DNA of 64,000 nt from Candidatus Nomurabacteria bacterium (GTDB lineage Bacteria; Patescibacteriota; Patescibacteriia; HK-STAS-PATE-3), in contig CP060223.1 in assembly GCA_023898465.1 (NCBI GenBank), forward strand, positions 480,001 through 544,000, in the 5' to 3' direction. Within the stretch, counting starts at the first letter, position 1; each line of letters opens with the position of its first letter. This document shows, piece after piece, positions 5,448 through 61,721 of this stretch. Under the pieces are notes generated by a model that was given only the letters and a program-made list of their open reading frames with translations, ran no database searches and was not told the origin of the DNA. The translations under genes were made by a program, and so were the position numbers.

Positions 5448-6473
5448 TTACTGGTCTTTTGAAATACTAGCTGAAATATCAATATTTTTTGCGCCTTTAA
5501 AGTAATCAATGGTCCGGCGTAAGCCTTCTGATAAGGCCACTACTGGAAACCAGCCTAAGCGCTCTTTTGCCAAAGCTATATTAGGCACGCCCTGTATAAC
5601 TGTTGACTTAGTGTGTTCGGTAAAACGAGATCCTGATGTACTGCCCGTAAGTTCTTGAATGTACTTTACTACATCCTCTAGGCGATGTTGATCAGGACTA
5701 CCCAGATTAACTGGCCCTAACTCGCTTGATTTCATGAGTCGCAGTAAGCCCTCCACAATATCGCTGATGTAACAAAGAGTCGTGGTATCATCTGCTTTAC
5801 CGTATACCGTAATAGTTTCGTTACGCAACGCCGCATTAATCATTTCCGGCACCATTCTACCATCGTCTACGCGCAAGCGAGGACCATAGGTGTTAAAGAG
5901 TCGGGCGATTTTTGCCTTTAATGCGTATTTTTCTCGGTAGTGCACGGTTAAGCTTTCGGCAAAGCGCTTACCCTCACTAAAGGCCGATCGCGACCCAACC
6001 GGATTCACATAGCCCCAATATTCTTCTGGGTATGGAGTCCTTTCCATGGGTTCGCCATAAATGGCATCAGAAGAAGCCAAGAGAAAACTGGCTTGATATT
6101 TTTTCGCCATTTCAAGAGCATTCCGAGTTGCTTGAGCATTTGCTACCAGTGTTTCAACTGGCATCTGTAGATAATCCTTTGGTGAAGTCGGAGAGGCGAA
6201 ATGATAAATTTCCTGCACTCCTTGGAACTCCACTTGAAAAGGTTTAAGACCTGGCTCGTGATCAAGATCTATCGGATCAGACAAATCATGCTTCACAAAC
6301 TCAAAATTTGGATTTTGGAGAAGATGATTTATGTTTTCTTCTCGACCAGTTGAAAAATTGTCTAAACAAATAACCTTGTGTTGCTTCACCAGCTCATCAC
6401 AAAGATGAGATCCAATGAATCCTGCTCCACCTGTTACTAATATGTTTTTTCTTTCAAAAATGGGTCTGCTCAT
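5448..6473 (-). CDS. UDP-glucuronate (or UDP-2-acetamido-glucuronate) decarboxylase-like extended SDR (UXS/ArnA C-domain-like)
   Basis: [19 protein letters not shown]...VICLDNFSTGREENI is the classic UXS N-terminal signature. Length 341 aa. Confidence 0.65.
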   Translation of the reverse strand: MSRPIFERKNILVTGGAGFIGSHLCDELVKQHKVICLDNFSTGREENINHLLQNPNFEFVKHDLSDPIDLDHEPGLKPFQVEFQGVQEIYHFASPTSPKDYLQMPVETLVANAQATRNALEMAKKYQASFLLASSDAIYGEPMERTPYPEEYWGYVNPVGSRSAFSEGKRFAESLTVHYREKYALKAKIARLFNTYGPRLRVDDGRMVPEMINAALRNETITVYGKADDTTTLCYISDIVEGLLRLMKSSELGPVNLGSPDQHRLEDVVKYIQELTGSTSGSRFTEHTKSTVIQGVPNIALAKERLGWFPVVALSEGLRRTIDYFKGAKNIDISASISKDQ

Positions 6474-6482
6474 ACGCAGTAC

Positions 6483-7199
6483 TTAACGATAATGACCTAA
6501 AATGTCATGGTATCGAACACTAAGAAGCTCCCAAAAAGTTTTTATATAATCTGAGGGACGCACCTTACTAGCAAAATCATTCTTCCAAGTCACAGGAATT
6601 TCCTTCATCGTGAAGTGAAATTTTTTTGCCAGGAAAAGTATTTCAAAATCAAATCCCCACCCTCGTAGCTGCTGCTTTTGAAAAAGCATACGGCAGCGCT
6701 TACTATACAGTTTAAATCCGCATTGCGTATCTTCTATGCCGGACACTGCTAACCATTGAATCAACTTATTTCCAATTCGTCCCAGCGTTACCTTCACCGA
6801 AGATTGACGAACGGTAATATCAGCTTCGGGTAATGCTCGCGAGCCAATCAACACATCATACTGCTTACGCTCCGGCCAAAACTTAGCGAAATCTTGAATC
6901 GGAGTGGAGAGATCAGTATCGGTCAGCAACACCCAGACACCTCTTGCTTCTAGCATTCCAGCCTTAACGGCAGCACCTTTACCGCCATGTGGCACAGAAT
7001 GCACCCGGACCGGCTTCCCATAACCAGCTGCTAATCGAGCAGTACCATCCGTGCTACCATCATCCACCACCACTACCTCGTAGCTAAGATCGGGGTAGTG
7101 CTTGGGGAAATATTCAAGGATAGTTTCCAAGCTGGGAGGCAGGCGCTTCGCTTCATTATACGCCGGCAAAACAATGGAAAGCTCAACAGGATTTGACAT
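6483..7199 (-). CDS. GT2 polyprenyl-phosphate sugar synthase (DPM1/ArnC/GtrB-like)
   Basis: LSIVLPAYNE...VVVVDDGSTDGT, the DxD region and a 238-aa size all fit GT-A fold dolichol-P-mannose synthase-like enzymes. Confidence 0.7.
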   Translation of the reverse strand: MSNPVELSIVLPAYNEAKRLPPSLETILEYFPKHYPDLSYEVVVVDDGSTDGTARLAAGYGKPVRVHSVPHGGKGAAVKAGMLEARGVWVLLTDTDLSTPIQDFAKFWPERKQYDVLIGSRALPEADITVRQSSVKVTLGRIGNKLIQWLAVSGIEDTQCGFKLYSKRCRMLFQKQQLRGWGFDFEILFLAKKFHFTMKEIPVTWKNDFASKVRPSDYIKTFWELLSVRYHDILGHYR

Positions 7200-14913: not shown

Positions 14914-14987
14914 TGGCTCGGGAGCAGGGACTCGAACCCCGGTTACTAGGGCCAGAACCTAGCGTCCTACCACTAGACGACTCCCGA
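14914..14987 (-). tRNA. tRNA-Gln (anticodon CUG), CCA encoded
   Basis: Manual fold gives a 7-bp acceptor stem (TCGGGAG/CTCCCGA), a D-arm with AGTGGTAG loop, an anticodon stem CTAGG/CCTAG with loop TTCTGGC, a T-arm CGGGG-TTCGAGT-CCCTG, discriminator G and CCA. Confidence 0.8.
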
Positions 14988-22842: not shown

Positions 22843-23184
22843 AGACCATATTCAGTCTTTGTGTTTCTTTTACATTTACTATTCTAGCACACTTTTTTAC
22901 TTTTTGCAAGCATAAAATAACGCGTCAATTGTTTCGGCAATGTTCAATTTAATATATTACCAAACTCCCTGGACTACCACGTTCAGGGAGAGCGCTTCTT
23001 CCGCGAAGGTGGTACTTCGCGGAATTGTAAAGGTGACTTTATTGCCCCCCCTCCCTTCCCTATTCCATGCACCGTCCAAGATAAATTCTTGGACTACGCG
23101 GTTATTATTTTCTCCTGCGTAGCGCAGGCGAAGAATTCATCTTCGCCATTCAGCATCGCTGGAGTTTATACAAAAACTTCAGGC

Positions 23185-41190: not shown

Positions 41191-41736
41191 TTACGAATAA
41201 GAGAGTTGTTCCATTTCCTTGCGTAAGGCTTGCAAAGCCCTATGTTTCAATACGCGCACATTGAGAGCACTGATCTGCATTACTTTTGCCACTTCACTTA
41301 TACTTAGATCCTCTCGATAAAGCATATGGAGCAGAGTTGCGTAGCGTTCAGGAAGGCGGGTTAAGGCTGATTCCATTTCCCGCTCCATTATTACATCTGG
41401 CATCTCATCCGGATCACTTGATAAAGTATGACTCACGCTCTCAATATCAACCTGGGTGCGTTGGCCACGATAATGATCAATCAAGCGGAAACGGGCAATT
41501 TGAAAAAGCCAGGTAGAGAATTTTGCATGTTTCTGCTCCTTATATCGGGGCAATGAGCGAATCATTTCAAGAAAAACAGTTTGGGTTAAATCCTCAGCTG
41601 TTTCCTGACTACTGACCCGCATAAGCAAGAAACGGAACACCCGGTCTCCGAAAAGGTGGAAAAGTTCGGCCACCCCTTCTTGATCCCCTTGTTGCGCTCT
41701 GGCGACGATTTCCTGTACTTGGCTTTCGTGTTGCAT
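41191..41736 (-). CDS. ECF-type RNA polymerase sigma factor (sigma-70 regions 2 and 4)
   Basis: DLTQTVFLEMIRSLPRY...FSTWLFQIARFRLIDHYR region 2 and a C-terminal region-4 HTH. Confidence 0.85.
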   Translation of the reverse strand: MQHESQVQEIVARAQQGDQEGVAELFHLFGDRVFRFLLMRVSSQETAEDLTQTVFLEMIRSLPRYKEQKHAKFSTWLFQIARFRLIDHYRGQRTQVDIESVSHTLSSDPDEMPDVIMEREMESALTRLPERYATLLHMLYREDLSISEVAKVMQISALNVRVLKHRALQALRKEMEQLSYS

Positions 41737-41749
41737 AGCGTATATTAGT

Positions 41750-41777
41750 ATATCGGAAATAGGATTATTTTGTTACA
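41750..41777 (-). promoter_or_regulatory. candidate ECF-type autoregulatory promoter (TGTAAC-N16-CGATAT)
   Basis: The minus strand reads TGTAACaaaataatcctatttcCGATAT just upstream of the sigma-factor ATG, resembling SigW/ECF-type -35/-10 elements. Confidence 0.3.
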
Positions 41778-41798
41778 TCTACCAAGAAATGCTATTAC

Positions 41799-41827
41799 TT
41801 GACATTTTTTCATATCTAGTCTAGTAT
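41799..41827 (+). promoter_or_regulatory. near-consensus sigma70 promoter (TTGACA-17-TAGTAT) firing into an ORF-free region
   Basis: TTGACAttttttcatatctagtcTAGTAT. Confidence 0.45.
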
Positions 41828-41834
41828 ATGCACT

Positions 41835-42191
41835 CGATGTTCATTAGAAATGAGAGAGAGGCGGGATGAGATAGGTGTCCCCCCAGACACCTCGCTACCT
41901 TCATACAGCGGTAGTTGCATCATCCCACTGCCCGAAGCGGCTCCCCACCCTTGTTACTACTTGTACTGGCTTCATCCCTAAGGATCCCCCGCCAGTCTGG
42001 TGCTGACATGTTCGGCGTCATATCCTTATGGTCTATTGGCTGCAAAGCTGATCACCTTTTGTGATGATGACTCACCGATGCTTCGGCTCAGATGCCTCTC
42101 TCTCCACCTACGCCTGCGCACCTGAGCACTCCCCCAGGCTCACTGCGCATGTGCCCCCGTCGTGTCGTTGTACCGACGGGGGTGCTTTTTT
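41835..42191 (+). ncRNA. candidate structured non-coding RNA (about 360 nt) of unknown family
   Basis: No ORF of at least 60 aa in any frame over about 500 nt. It has a defined promoter and an intrinsic terminator. Visible helices include an 11-bp long-range pairing gagagagaggc/gcctctctctc, a GGTGTCcccccaGACACC hairpin and a C(UUCG)G tetraloop. Confidence 0.35.
42153..42191 (+). terminator. rho-independent terminator
   Basis: GCCCCCGTCG-11nt loop-CGACGGGGGT followed by TTTTTT. Confidence 0.6.
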
Positions 42192-42202
42192 ATAAAAAGA
42201 AA

Positions 42203-42226
42203 TCCCCAGGCCGATTGGTCTGGGGA
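42203..42226 (-). terminator. terminator hairpin for the heliorhodopsin operon (bidirectional pair with the previous)
   Basis: TCCCCAGgccgattggtCTGGGGA. On the minus strand it is followed by TTTCTTTTTAT. Confidence 0.4.
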
Positions 42227-42232
42227 TGAGAA

Positions 42233-42736
42233 CTAGAACTGTTGTGCTGAACGCATCCGATGAAGCGTGCTACACACCAGTCCAATACCAGAGCGACGCT
42301 CTACACAGAACTGATACACCCGTTGCGCCGCCATGAGCTTTTCATAGAGCGCCTGACCATGCTTAGTGGCTAGTTCGTTTCGCATCTCCCGGTCTAGACC
42401 TTGGTAATACGAACCAAGCAGCAGATAGCGCACTAGAAGCCACCCCAGTAACCCGGAGCTGAGCAGCATCGCTGTTAAAGCACCGGGCAGAGTCAGATAC
42501 CCGAGCAAATCCTCCAGTCTTGCCCAGTAGTACACTGCAACAAGCTCAAATAGCAGAAACGCTAGCGTGGCTATAGTTGACCCTATCCGGATAAACAGGC
42601 GCCACCTTTTCACTCTCTCGCACAACTCTAGAATCTCTTCTTCTTGAACACTGAGTTGCGCGTAGAGGAAATTCGACATATGCACCTCCCTCTTGCATAC
42701 CCAAAAGCAGTCTACACCCGCTGCACTGCAGGTCAA
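42233..42736 (-). CDS. membrane protein, function unknown (last gene of the heliorhodopsin operon)
   Basis: 2-3 TM helices. A 9-nt gap to the HeR gene. The likely start is at the internal MSNFLYAQL. Confidence 0.45.
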   Translation of the reverse strand: MTCSAAGVDCFWVCKREVHMSNFLYAQLSVQEEEILELCERVKRWRLFIRIGSTIATLAFLLFELVAVYYWARLEDLLGYLTLPGALTAMLLSSGLLGWLLVRYLLLGSYYQGLDREMRNELATKHGQALYEKLMAAQRVYQFCVERRSGIGLVCSTLHRMRSAQQF

Positions 42737-42745
42737 GCATTCAGG

Positions 42746-43528
42746 TTAAGGCCGGAGAGTACCGGAAAACATTTGCCAGGCTAGAGCTGATTTCGCCACC
42801 AGGGACAAAATCATATAGGCCTTTTCACCGTAGAGATAGTCCTGCCATTTCCCTATCTTCTTATACTGCAGGACCATGTTAATCGCGAAGATGTTAAAGG
42901 TGACAAAGATGGTGGCCACAATGAAATAAACAAAGGTAGGAATCTCCACTCCGGTCGACTGTACCGCGCCAATGAAGAAAGCAACAATGACCAGCCAGGG
43001 AATTAAGCCAGCCAAAACTCCTATCCAGTACGAAAGCCAATTCGTATGCTTGGTCGTCTGATTATGTACTTCCATCATCAAGCCCATGAGATTCATAATC
43101 GCATTCAAGGCAAACAGCGAAATGAGTAGCCAAAGATCGTACACACCACAAAGCATGGCAATAACTACAATCATAACTGACGAGGATAAGGCATACTCAG
43201 CCCAACGCAGCTTGTTGATGCCCTTTTTCAAATTCTCCTCATACCATTCCCGCAAAGGTCCGGCTAGAAGGAAATGCGCAAAAGCAGAAAGGAAGAGAAA
43301 GACCGCTACGGTGGGGCCTAAGCGTAAGTCAAACAAATGCTCAGGAAGTGGAGCTACACCAAAAACTGGATTATTTGGATCGATTTTCAGGTATGAAGTA
43401 ACAACTGGTAAAGATGAATTATTGCTTATCAAAACCATAATGACGCCTTGCACGAAGTGAAGGGCGGCCATTGACCAATTCCAGACTTGTAGTTTTTTTA
43501 ACTGCTCTTTTTGACTACGCATTTTCAT
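42746..43528 (-). CDS. heliorhodopsin (inverted-topology microbial rhodopsin)
   Basis: Strong family signatures: RWAEYALSSSVMIVVIAML (TM3 with counterion Glu), YMILSLVAKSALAWQMFSGTL (TM7 with Schiff-base Lys), and conserved His in LHFVQG and AFAHFLLAG. Confidence 0.85.
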   Translation of the reverse strand: MKMRSQKEQLKKLQVWNWSMAALHFVQGVIMVLISNNSSLPVVTSYLKIDPNNPVFGVAPLPEHLFDLRLGPTVAVFLFLSAFAHFLLAGPLREWYEENLKKGINKLRWAEYALSSSVMIVVIAMLCGVYDLWLLISLFALNAIMNLMGLMMEVHNQTTKHTNWLSYWIGVLAGLIPWLVIVAFFIGAVQSTGVEIPTFVYFIVATIFVTFNIFAINMVLQYKKIGKWQDYLYGEKAYMILSLVAKSALAWQMFSGTLRP

Positions 43529-43546
43529 ACCCCCCCCTTTTTTTCT

Positions 43547-43885: not shown

Positions 43886-43925
43886 ATACTAAAGTATATC
43901 ACTTGCCTCGGTCTTTGCGTAGTAC

Positions 43926-61161: not shown

Positions 61162-61194
61162 AGGCTGGAACCATGCGTCAACACATCTACAACA

Positions 61195-61230
61195 GCGCCT
61201 GAAGAGATTTACTCTCTCAGGCGCTTTTTT
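61195..61230 (+). terminator. rho-independent terminator
   Basis: GCGCCTGA-loop-TCAGGCGC followed by TTTTTT. Confidence 0.55.
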
Positions 61231-61287
61231 GTATATGAAAAGCCGCCAAAGTTCCGAAGAAGCTTGGCGGCGAGAGACGAGGAGGGA

Positions 61288-61611
61288 TCAGGCGCCCTCA
61301 GTACTGACCTCCTCCTTCCCGCAAAGATGCAGGATGAATGACAATAGCGTGAGGAACCCGAGGATCCCGCCTGCAATAAGCAGGAACCAGCGGCCGAGGT
61401 CTCCGAAGAAACCCCGATAGACTCCTTCGATGAAGGGACGATGACCCGTGCCTTCAAACACGAGTACCGTGGGGAATCCTCCCCAAAACATGAGGAGGGA
61501 GATGATCGCAAGAGTCGCCACCGACACACCCATGGCAAAGGGCGACAGAATGATCGCCAGTCCCATGTGCTTTCCGACCAGCTTGAGCAAACCCGTAAAC
61601 AAGCGTGCCAT
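61288..61611 (-). CDS. small membrane protein (3 TM), GC-rich
   Basis: The start is at ATG 61611 (MARLFTG). A hairpin GCCGCCAA...TTGGCGGC plus T-rich tract lies downstream on the minus strand. Confidence 0.4.
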   Translation of the reverse strand: MARLFTGLLKLVGKHMGLAIILSPFAMGVSVATLAIISLLMFWGGFPTVLVFEGTGHRPFIEGVYRGFFGDLGRWFLLIAGGILGFLTLLSFILHLCGKEEVSTEGA

Positions 61612-61721
61612 AATAGTATTCCTCGTATGTACCGACCTCAAAAGGTCGAGTTTGAGTCAATGTACAAAACGTATCTGGGCAATATAATAGCACATTTCGT
61701 TTATTTTGTCAATATATAAAG

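Follow-up and report, generated by a model that had tools for sequence, protein, structure and literature searches.

A probable stand-alone gene for a structured RNA of about 360 nucleotides beside the heliorhodopsin operon of a Nomurabacteria genome, with C-rich loops as candidate pairing sites

The small regulatory RNAs (sRNAs) RoxS (PMC4409812) and RsaE (PMC6158497), of Bacillus and Staphylococcus, carry C-rich loops that pair with the G-rich Shine-Dalgarno regions of their target mRNAs. In a 64,000-nucleotide (nt) stretch of the genome of a Candidatus Nomurabacteria bacterium (contig CP060223.1, positions 480,001 to 544,000; hereafter the window), we analyzed the gap between a gene for an extracytoplasmic function (ECF) sigma factor and a heliorhodopsin (HeR) operon, where a first-pass annotation made from the DNA letters had proposed an orphan structured RNA. 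Our analysis of the sequence and of predicted folds indicates that positions 41833-42191 of the plus strand very probably constitute a genuine, stand-alone gene for a structured noncoding RNA (ncRNA) of ~360 nt. This RNA is a new, narrowly distributed family within a known kind, the stand-alone structured or regulatory RNAs of bacteria, and we assign a probability of about 0.4 to the combined reading, in which such a gene would also encode a regulator that base-pairs through C-rich loops.

Like RoxS and RsaE, the window RNA has a gene to itself, with its own promoter and intrinsic terminator, and several exposed C-rich loops. It differs from them in its phylum, which belongs to the candidate phyla radiation (CPR), in matching the RsaE model in neither sequence nor structure, and in size (~360 nt and seven helical domains, compared with ~100-115 nt and two or three hairpins). 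RepG of Helicobacter pylori, an sRNA of ~87 nt, reportedly uses a C/U-rich loop to bind a homopolymeric stretch of G residues in a single mRNA leader; the likeness here is that the neighboring HeR mRNA carries a run of eight G residues (G8) at an A/G junction that varies between samples, whereas RepG shows no homology to the window RNA and the HeR interaction is a prediction. The large RNAs OLE, GOLLD, HEARO, ROOL and raiA, which exceed 200-300 nt, have elaborate conserved structures, were found by comparative genomics and have functions that are at best partly known; unlike the present RNA they have models in Rfam, none of which matches here, and hundreds of representatives across genera, where we have two. 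With 6S RNA and Ms1 (~300 nt) the window RNA shares a sigma-70 promoter, a high degree of structure, a stand-alone gene and the features of an abundant type of RNA, but there is no Rfam match and its fold is branched, whereas 6S RNA is a rod of ~180-200 nt with a central bubble resembling an open promoter. CsrB and RsmZ also repeat a short motif over the loops of a larger scaffold; the motif of the window RNA is C-rich rather than GGA, a partner resembling CsrA is not known for it, and no model of that kind matches.

The gap spans 496 nt (41737-42232) and holds no open reading frame (ORF) longer than 49 amino acids (aa) in any of the six frames, in agreement with the first-pass annotation, which had reported none of at least 60 aa between the ECF sigma gene and the HeR operon; several ORFs of 41-49 aa are present. 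Both flanking operons run on the opposite strand, and the RNA gene has no overlap with either. Its G+C content is 55%, compared with 45.6% for the window, and the plus strand is C-skewed throughout the region. The TTGACA-17-TAGTAT promoter that had been proposed at 41799-41827 is present, and it was the top-scoring site in a 2-kb promoter scan that returned six sites matching at least 9 of 12 positions against 2.4 expected; it predicts an RNA start at ~41832-41836, within a conserved ACUCG. The strong terminator hairpin and T6 described earlier were also recovered, with the stem at 42151-42185. We considered a leader or riboswitch and rejected it, as the next downstream genes are on the other strand and the terminator ends the RNA.

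When the sequence 41834-42192 (+) was folded, its minimum free energy (MFE) was -140.2 kcal/mol, compared with -107.0 +/- 5.2 kcal/mol for dinucleotide shuffles (z = -6.38); the reverse strand gave a weaker z of -5.0. The scan of intergenic gaps was run beside a background of 98 sampled 250-nt segments from the same 64 kb (mean z -0.32, standard deviation 1.35, minimum -4.35), against which the gap region is an outlier in fold stability. The predicted fold is branched and closed by a long-range helix, P1, within which lie a P2 domain and a helix P3 enclosing P4, P5 and P6, followed by P7 and the terminator (Table 1). The 11-bp complementarity that the first-pass annotation had pointed out is exact and forms P1 in the MFE structure, as it had suggested checking, and in the centroid structure as well; of the local hairpins that it listed, GGUGUC-CCCCCA-GACACC was located at 41874-41891. 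Its UUCG tetraloop was not borne out: GCUUCGGC (42080-42087) forms the 3' strand of P3 with CCGAAGC (41932-41938), both in the window RNA and in the homologue described next.

This homologue is found in L007, a 3.4-kb Logan contig that encodes P0002, a relative of the sigma factor with 76% identity. The contig has the order HeR (85% identical), a 461-nt gap and sigma, which is the layout of the window minus a 148-aa ORF, and within the gap, on the strand opposite to the genes, lies a homologue of the RNA that shares its promoter and has the P1 arms GAGAGAGGC and CCUCUCUC. The promoter reads TTGACC-17-TAGTAT, in which the hexamers and a block AGTNTAGTATA-NNN-ACTCG have been kept while the spacer has diverged. 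At the position equivalent to the terminator there is a 12-bp hairpin (GCCCCCAUCUC.../...GAGAUGGGGGUU) with a weaker U tail. Further blocks common to the two RNAs are CCCGAAG/CUUCGGC, UCCCC[A/G]CCCU, CUGUUC and CUGAUC, and beyond the conserved blocks the two gaps are too diverged to be aligned by blastn, tblastx or nhmmer. We also observed that in L007 the RNA terminator stands immediately next to the stop codon of HeR and might work in both directions.

Independent MFE folds of the window RNA and the L007 RNA have an identical order of helices, namely an 11-bp P1, a 7-bp P2 with one or two hairpins, P3 with a 3-4-bp extension, P4, P5, P6, P7 and the terminator. The sequence of P1 is unchanged in L007 over 9 bp, and the CCGAAG/CUUCGG core of P3 is invariant, with its three outer pairs (CUG/CAG in one RNA, ACA/UGU in the other) all changed in a compensatory manner. 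The P2 stem of L007, UGUGCAG/CUGCACA, encloses a single hairpin and has six of its seven pairs changed on both sides with pairing kept; there are six such double-changed pairs in P5 and seven in P6, and the P7 position is occupied by a hairpin whose sequence is unlike that of the window. The L007 RNA has a z of -9.58 (-7.6 for its antisense). With no input but the window core (41852-42104) and the MFE structure predicted for it, a covariance model recovered the L007 copy from end to end (31.9 bits, E = 7e-9 in 132 kb), while nhmmer --max with the same query found nothing at E<=100.

In the resulting alignment 96.9% of the pair cells were canonical and ~23-25 pairs were double-changed, compared with 2-5 in controls in which the 3' partner was slid by 1-3 columns; the first of these pair counts had taken in a spurious third row, whose effect is to inflate helix 1 alone. 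With the alignment reduced to its two genuine rows, RNAalifold gave 60 consensus pairs, 25 of them compensatory. The structure conservation index was 0.66 at 52% identity over the aligned columns. The two-sequence comparison is good evidence for a conserved fold, short of a formal covariation test. The first-pass annotation had proposed a comparison of homologous regions and had named a conserved small protein, in place of covariation, as an outcome that would speak against an RNA. The fold was kept through compensatory changes in the one homologue (n = 2 sequences), and no reading frame was conserved between the window and L007 by tblastx or by comparison of ORFs, the only tblastx matches carrying stop codons.

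Known families did not account for the RNA. At gathering scores, Rfam 15 found only a tRNA (14917-14987) in the whole window and only tRNAs in nine related loci. With permissive filters at E<=10, it returned four junk matches for the gap alone (three on terminators and one antisense snoRNA model) and likewise only junk for the L007 RNA, and no match came from the models of RNase P, 6S RNA, transfer-messenger RNA (tmRNA), signal recognition particle (SRP) RNA, RsaE, OLE, GOLLD, HEARO, ROOL or raiA. ARAGORN identified the RNA as neither tRNA nor tmRNA, no sequence resembling P4, CR-I or CR-V of RNase P was seen on reading it, and it has neither a tRNA-like end nor a tag ORF, its 3' end being the intrinsic terminator. 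The earlier failure to find signatures of RNase P, tmRNA or SRP RNA is thus matched by these searches, and the suggestion of a possibly undescribed family is backed by the Rfam negatives together with the conserved fold in L007 and the lack of a conserved protein. A literature search yielded no account of structured ncRNAs in the CPR and none of an RNA beside HeR.

Further copies were sought in several ways. No second copy was detected in the window by blastn or covariance models. A protein annotated on a 1.08-Mb contig of a Candidatus Nomurabacteria metagenome-assembled genome matches the sigma factor of the window exactly. The nearest reference-genome relatives of the sigma protein are metagenome-assembled genomes of Patescibacteria or Parcubacteria; a scan of genome contigs for sigma yielded five Patescibacteria loci at 40-57% identity, and in the protein search P0002 was the sole sigma relative above 58%. 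Seven loci with sigma orthologues (L002-L006, L110 and L111; 40-58%) had no RNA detectable by nhmmer or covariance model, and their upstream gaps, where inspected, contained tRNAs or were short. Six loci with HeR homologues (L008, L009, L010, L109, L112 and L113; 74-83%) had neither the synteny nor the RNA, and the gap after HeR in L008 was unstructured (z = -0.9). L001 and L108 are from the same strain as the window. In collections of phages and plasmids the only match was a 39-nt stretch resembling a promoter, and we reject an origin from either. A scan for the invariant P3 and P1 elements (CCCGAAG N135-165 CTTCGGC N4-13 CCTCTCTC) returned 1 viral and 96 metagenome matches, which we rejected as chance: they were mostly of high GC content, had no convincing 5' strand of P1 and were matched by neither nhmmer nor the model. 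As a control for specificity, unrelated DNA in which this pattern occurs (557 kb) was searched with the two-sequence covariance model, and no match reached E<=1.

In the nearest relative at NCBI, GCA_040960375.1, the HeR homologue (83%, L008) and the sigma homologue (58%, L110) lie on separate contigs and neither has the RNA nearby; the HeR-RNA-sigma arrangement is therefore specific to the lineage of the window and L007. Either the RNA family is confined to a narrow Nomurabacteria lineage, or it evolves too fast to be traced in the data examined. Two side observations concern the loci compared. In L112 (Logan SRR22388232, 947 nt), which holds a lone HeR gene, an identical 15-nt string, ccggcgaccgattga, stands at both ends and is probably an artefact of assembly-graph overlap or circularization. 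In L008, inverted repeats rich in G and C homopolymers (ctccccctgccccctcc ... ggggggcaggggggag, at 6120-6260 and 6780-6800) surround an apparent small minus-strand gene and may be the ends of a repeat element.

Among possible functions we rank base-pairing through C-rich loops first, action as a protein scaffold or sponge second, and a biochemical activity of the RNA itself third. Every run of at least four C residues outside the terminator was predicted to be unpaired in both RNAs (probabilities 0.67-1.0). The window RNA has four such runs (C6 in the P2a loop, C4 in P4, and a C5 each in the internal loop of P5 and the loop of P7) and the L007 RNA has three (C4 in P4, and C6 and C4 in P5), the C4 run of P4 being unpaired with a probability of 0.78 in the former and 0.99 in the latter; no unpaired G run was predicted in either RNA. 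We propose that a rigid scaffold would display three or four single-stranded C-rich loops (C4-C6), the conserved one being UCCCC[A/G]CCCU, that these loops would be its working parts and pair in trans with G-rich ribosome-binding sites, and that such pairing would block or modulate translation. The best candidate target would be the mRNA of the neighboring HeR gene, whose ribosome-binding site contains G8 in the window and G5 in L007 (GGGGGuaaaAUG); G runs are missing from the six HeR homologues whose loci lack the RNA, which have either AGGA-type sites or no site at all. When duplexes were predicted, the HeR initiation region ranked first among 48 window genes as a partner for each of the four C loops (-15 to -17 kcal/mol), in a test that is nearly circular, and the L007 loop UCUACCCCCCACC paired with GGGGGUA of its HeR at a predicted -14.1 kcal/mol. 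As a separate observation, the homopolymer junction at the HeR site varies between samples, reading A7G8 in the window and A8G7 in L108 (3500-3525).

Several points weigh against this proposal. Any C run will of necessity find its best partner in a stretch of eight G residues, which makes the target argument weak and partly circular, and an unrestricted ranking of duplexes over the 48 initiation regions produced long, non-specific duplexes and did not single out HeR. Runs of at least four C residues are mildly enriched (~5, compared with ~2.5 expected from composition by our own estimate) in a region that is C-skewed as a whole. The synteny with HeR and sigma, observed in no more than a single pair of close relatives, carries little functional weight, and the RNA, with its seven helical domains and its invariant P1 and P3, is unlike the C-loop sRNAs of ~100-115 nt; its size and elaboration hint at a protein partner or another function. 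On the structural side of the combined reading, two distinct sequences are below what covariation statistics of the R-scape type require, the pair counts derive from an alignment fitted to the structure, and the U tail of the L007 terminator is poor. Because the ranking is nearly circular, the enrichment in C runs mild, the region C-skewed and the RNA elaborate, we hold the C-loop mechanism, taken by itself, to be tentative and its odds to be distinctly short of even.

A protein-binding scaffold or sponge, which would form part of a ribonucleoprotein (RNP) or titrate a protein, on the model of CsrB/RsmZ, 6S/Ms1, Y RNA or OLE, seems to us rather unlikely. P1 (polypurine/polypyrimidine), P3 and the C-rich loops would then be recognition sites, for example for a poly(C)-binding protein of the KH or cold-shock type or for RNA polymerase. 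The large (~360 nt), conserved multi-domain architecture fits such a role, as do the invariance of P1 and P3 while other helices drift, which is typical of protein or tertiary contacts, the recurrence of a similar motif in several loops, as in sequestering RNAs, and a strong promoter of the constitutive type that is typical of abundant housekeeping RNPs. On the other side, no gene for a partner protein is linked to the RNA, the sole variable neighbor being the 148-aa ORF that is missing in L007, no protein-binding RNA family in Rfam is similar, and the distribution, which appears very narrow, would be unusual for a housekeeping RNP. It is improbable, in our judgment, that the RNA has a biochemical function of its own as a ribozyme, a ligand- or metal-binding RNA or otherwise, as the founder of a CPR class comparable to OLE, GOLLD, ROOL or raiA; its length and fold stability are within the range of large orphan ncRNAs, conserved single-stranded blocks (UCCCC[A/G]CCCU, CUGUUC and CUGAUC) stand at junctions, and it falls outside all known families, but we saw no signature of a conserved tertiary motif, L007 does not retain the GNRA loop that P6 has in the window, the two RNAs differ freely in helix lengths and in the P2 domain although they come from close relatives, and the sequences number only two. 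A view that cuts across both, in which the RNA would be the first of a large structured class of the CPR (Nomurabacteria lineage) acting beyond antisense pairing, either as an RNP scaffold or as a ligand- or light-pathway regulator coupling HeR to the ECF sigma/anti-sigma module with P1 and P3 as recognition elements, is one we consider unlikely.

Two other explanations would deny the RNA its novelty or its existence. The 253-nt unit bounded by a perfect 11-bp inverted repeat, which is its best-conserved part, resembles the termini of a miniature inverted-repeat transposable element (MITE), and the 41-49-aa ORFs could be taken for a small-protein gene or a decayed one. We nevertheless find it highly improbable that the locus is a protein gene or a MITE-like or repetitive extragenic palindromic (REP)-like repeat with the P1 arms as terminal inverted repeats, since there is a single copy in 64 kb and none in 13 other related loci, its identical syntenic position in L007 implies vertical descent, the phage and plasmid collections gave nothing beyond the promoter-like stretch, no frame is conserved, the internal helices are kept by compensatory changes, and the promoter and terminator are conserved as well. 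The fallback offered by the first-pass annotation, an RNase P or 6S RNA that has diverged strongly, to which tmRNA and SRP RNA may be added, is scarcely credible and fared worst of all. A length of ~360 nt and a P1 that closes the molecule are superficially like RNase P or tmRNA, and divergent housekeeping components are a known trait of CPR genomes, but no model of these RNAs matched either homologue at E<=10, ARAGORN was negative, the fold is branched and ends in a terminator rather than forming a 6S-type rod with a central bubble, and a universal RNA should be detectable in the genomes with sigma orthologues, which have no syntenic copy.

Table 1. Features of the RNA gene and of its surroundings, in window coordinates.
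Feature	Position	Strand	Remarks
Sigma-70-type promoter	-35 TTGACA 41799-41804; 17-nt spacer; -10 TAGTAT 41822-41827	+	10/12 match
5' leader, ~18 nt	41834-41851	+	Precedes P1; the L007 counterpart is a small hairpin
P1, 5' strand	41852-41862	+	GAGAGAGAGGC; pairs with 42094-42104; MFE and centroid
P2 domain	41863-41926	+	7-bp GGGAUGA/UCAUCCC around two hairpins, P2a and P2b
P2a hairpin	41873-41892	+	Exposed C6 loop 41879-41884, P(unpaired) 0.83
P2b hairpin	41894-41915	+	
P3, 5' strand	41928-41938	+	CUG.CCGAAGC; pairs with 42080-42091
P4 / conserved C-rich loop	41939-41951	+	GGCUCCCCACCCU (L007: GGUUUCCCCGCCCU)
P5, long irregular hairpin	41952-42008	+	Exposed C5 internal loop 41986-41990, P(unpaired) 1.00
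P6, long irregular hairpin	42012-42078	+	UCGG.GUCAUAUC...AUUGGCU-GCAA-AGCUGAU...GAU.AUGAC...CCGA; includes conserved CUGAUC
P3, 3' strand	42080-42091	+	GCUUCGG..CAG; pairs with 41928-41938
P1, 3' strand	42094-42104	+	GCCUCUCUCUC; 11 bp exact with 41852-41862
P7 hairpin	42115-42149	+	Between P1 and terminator; exposed C5 loop 42131-42135
Intrinsic terminator	42151-42191	+	12-bp GC-rich stem GUGCCCCCGUCG/CGACGGGGGUGC (42151-42162 / 42174-42185); U6 at 42186-42191
HeR-operon terminator hairpin	42204-42225	-	CCCCAGACC-AAUC-GGCCUGGGG, then AUUUCUUUUU; convergent, separate from the RNA
ECF sigma gene	41191-41736	-	Its start borders the gap
ECF sigma promoter	41747-41776	-	GTAACA-18-TATACT; divergent, back to back with the RNA promoter
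148/167-aa ORF	42233-42736	-	Its stop borders the gap; follows HeR
Heliorhodopsin gene (HeR)	42746-43528	-	
G8 run, HeR ribosome-binding site	43530-43537	-	aaaaaaaGGGGGGGGuAUGaaaAUG; candidate target

The surroundings of the RNA gene offer some further observations. Blocks of the ECF sigma promoter region are kept in L007. The divergent layout of the RNA and sigma promoters recalls sRNA genes that are sited opposite their regulator, a parallel against which the type of the RNA promoter, housekeeping rather than ECF, speaks. Several genes, among them the ECF sigma gene and a 112-aa ORF upstream of HeR (at 41737-41776 and 43886-43910, respectively, on the minus strand), place a TATACT-like -10 element just ~8-10 nt ahead of the ATG and lack a Shine-Dalgarno sequence, which suggests leaderless mRNAs; the sigma mRNA is probably leaderless, and most window genes have no obvious Shine-Dalgarno sequence. 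The 148/167-aa ORF between HeR and the RNA, which is absent from L007, is predicted to encode a membrane protein and has no Pfam match.

Two other stretches of the window also gave strongly negative z values. At 22940-23175 (+) there is a second ORF-free structured stretch with about six near-perfect hairpins of 6-10 bp and a long unpaired C/U-rich tract, UUGCCCCCCCUCCCUUCCCUAUUCC (~23041-23066); its MFE is -83.5 kcal/mol (z -6.8, and -4.7 for the minus strand), and it has no Rfam match and no similarity to the RNA described here, nor could a clear promoter or terminator be assigned to it. A further C-tract sRNA may be encoded there, which would hint at a wider regulatory system of C loops and G runs in a genome that otherwise looks largely leaderless. 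For the intergenic stretch 61162-61461, both strands gave a z near -6, which a pair of strong hairpins or terminators (61195-61232 and 61240-61275) accounts for. Near it lies an unlisted small ORF (~61290-61612, minus strand) with a TTGACA-17-TATTAT promoter (11/12) at 61712-61684.

The narrow distribution of the RNA and the existence of two distinct sequences restrict both the statistics and the generality of what can be said about it. The physiological role of heliorhodopsin is still debated, and if the C-loop mechanism is true, control of the G-run site of HeR by this RNA would be a handle on the regulation of heliorhodopsin expression; if the RNA is instead a component of an RNP or is catalytic, it would add a new class of large RNA. 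The genomes of CPR/Patescibacteria are tiny, at about 1 Mb, and to our knowledge almost nothing has been learned about RNA-based regulation in them. The RNA described here, ~360 nt long, strongly promoted, conserved in its fold and assigned to no known family, offers a concrete entry point to the RNA biology of the CPR.

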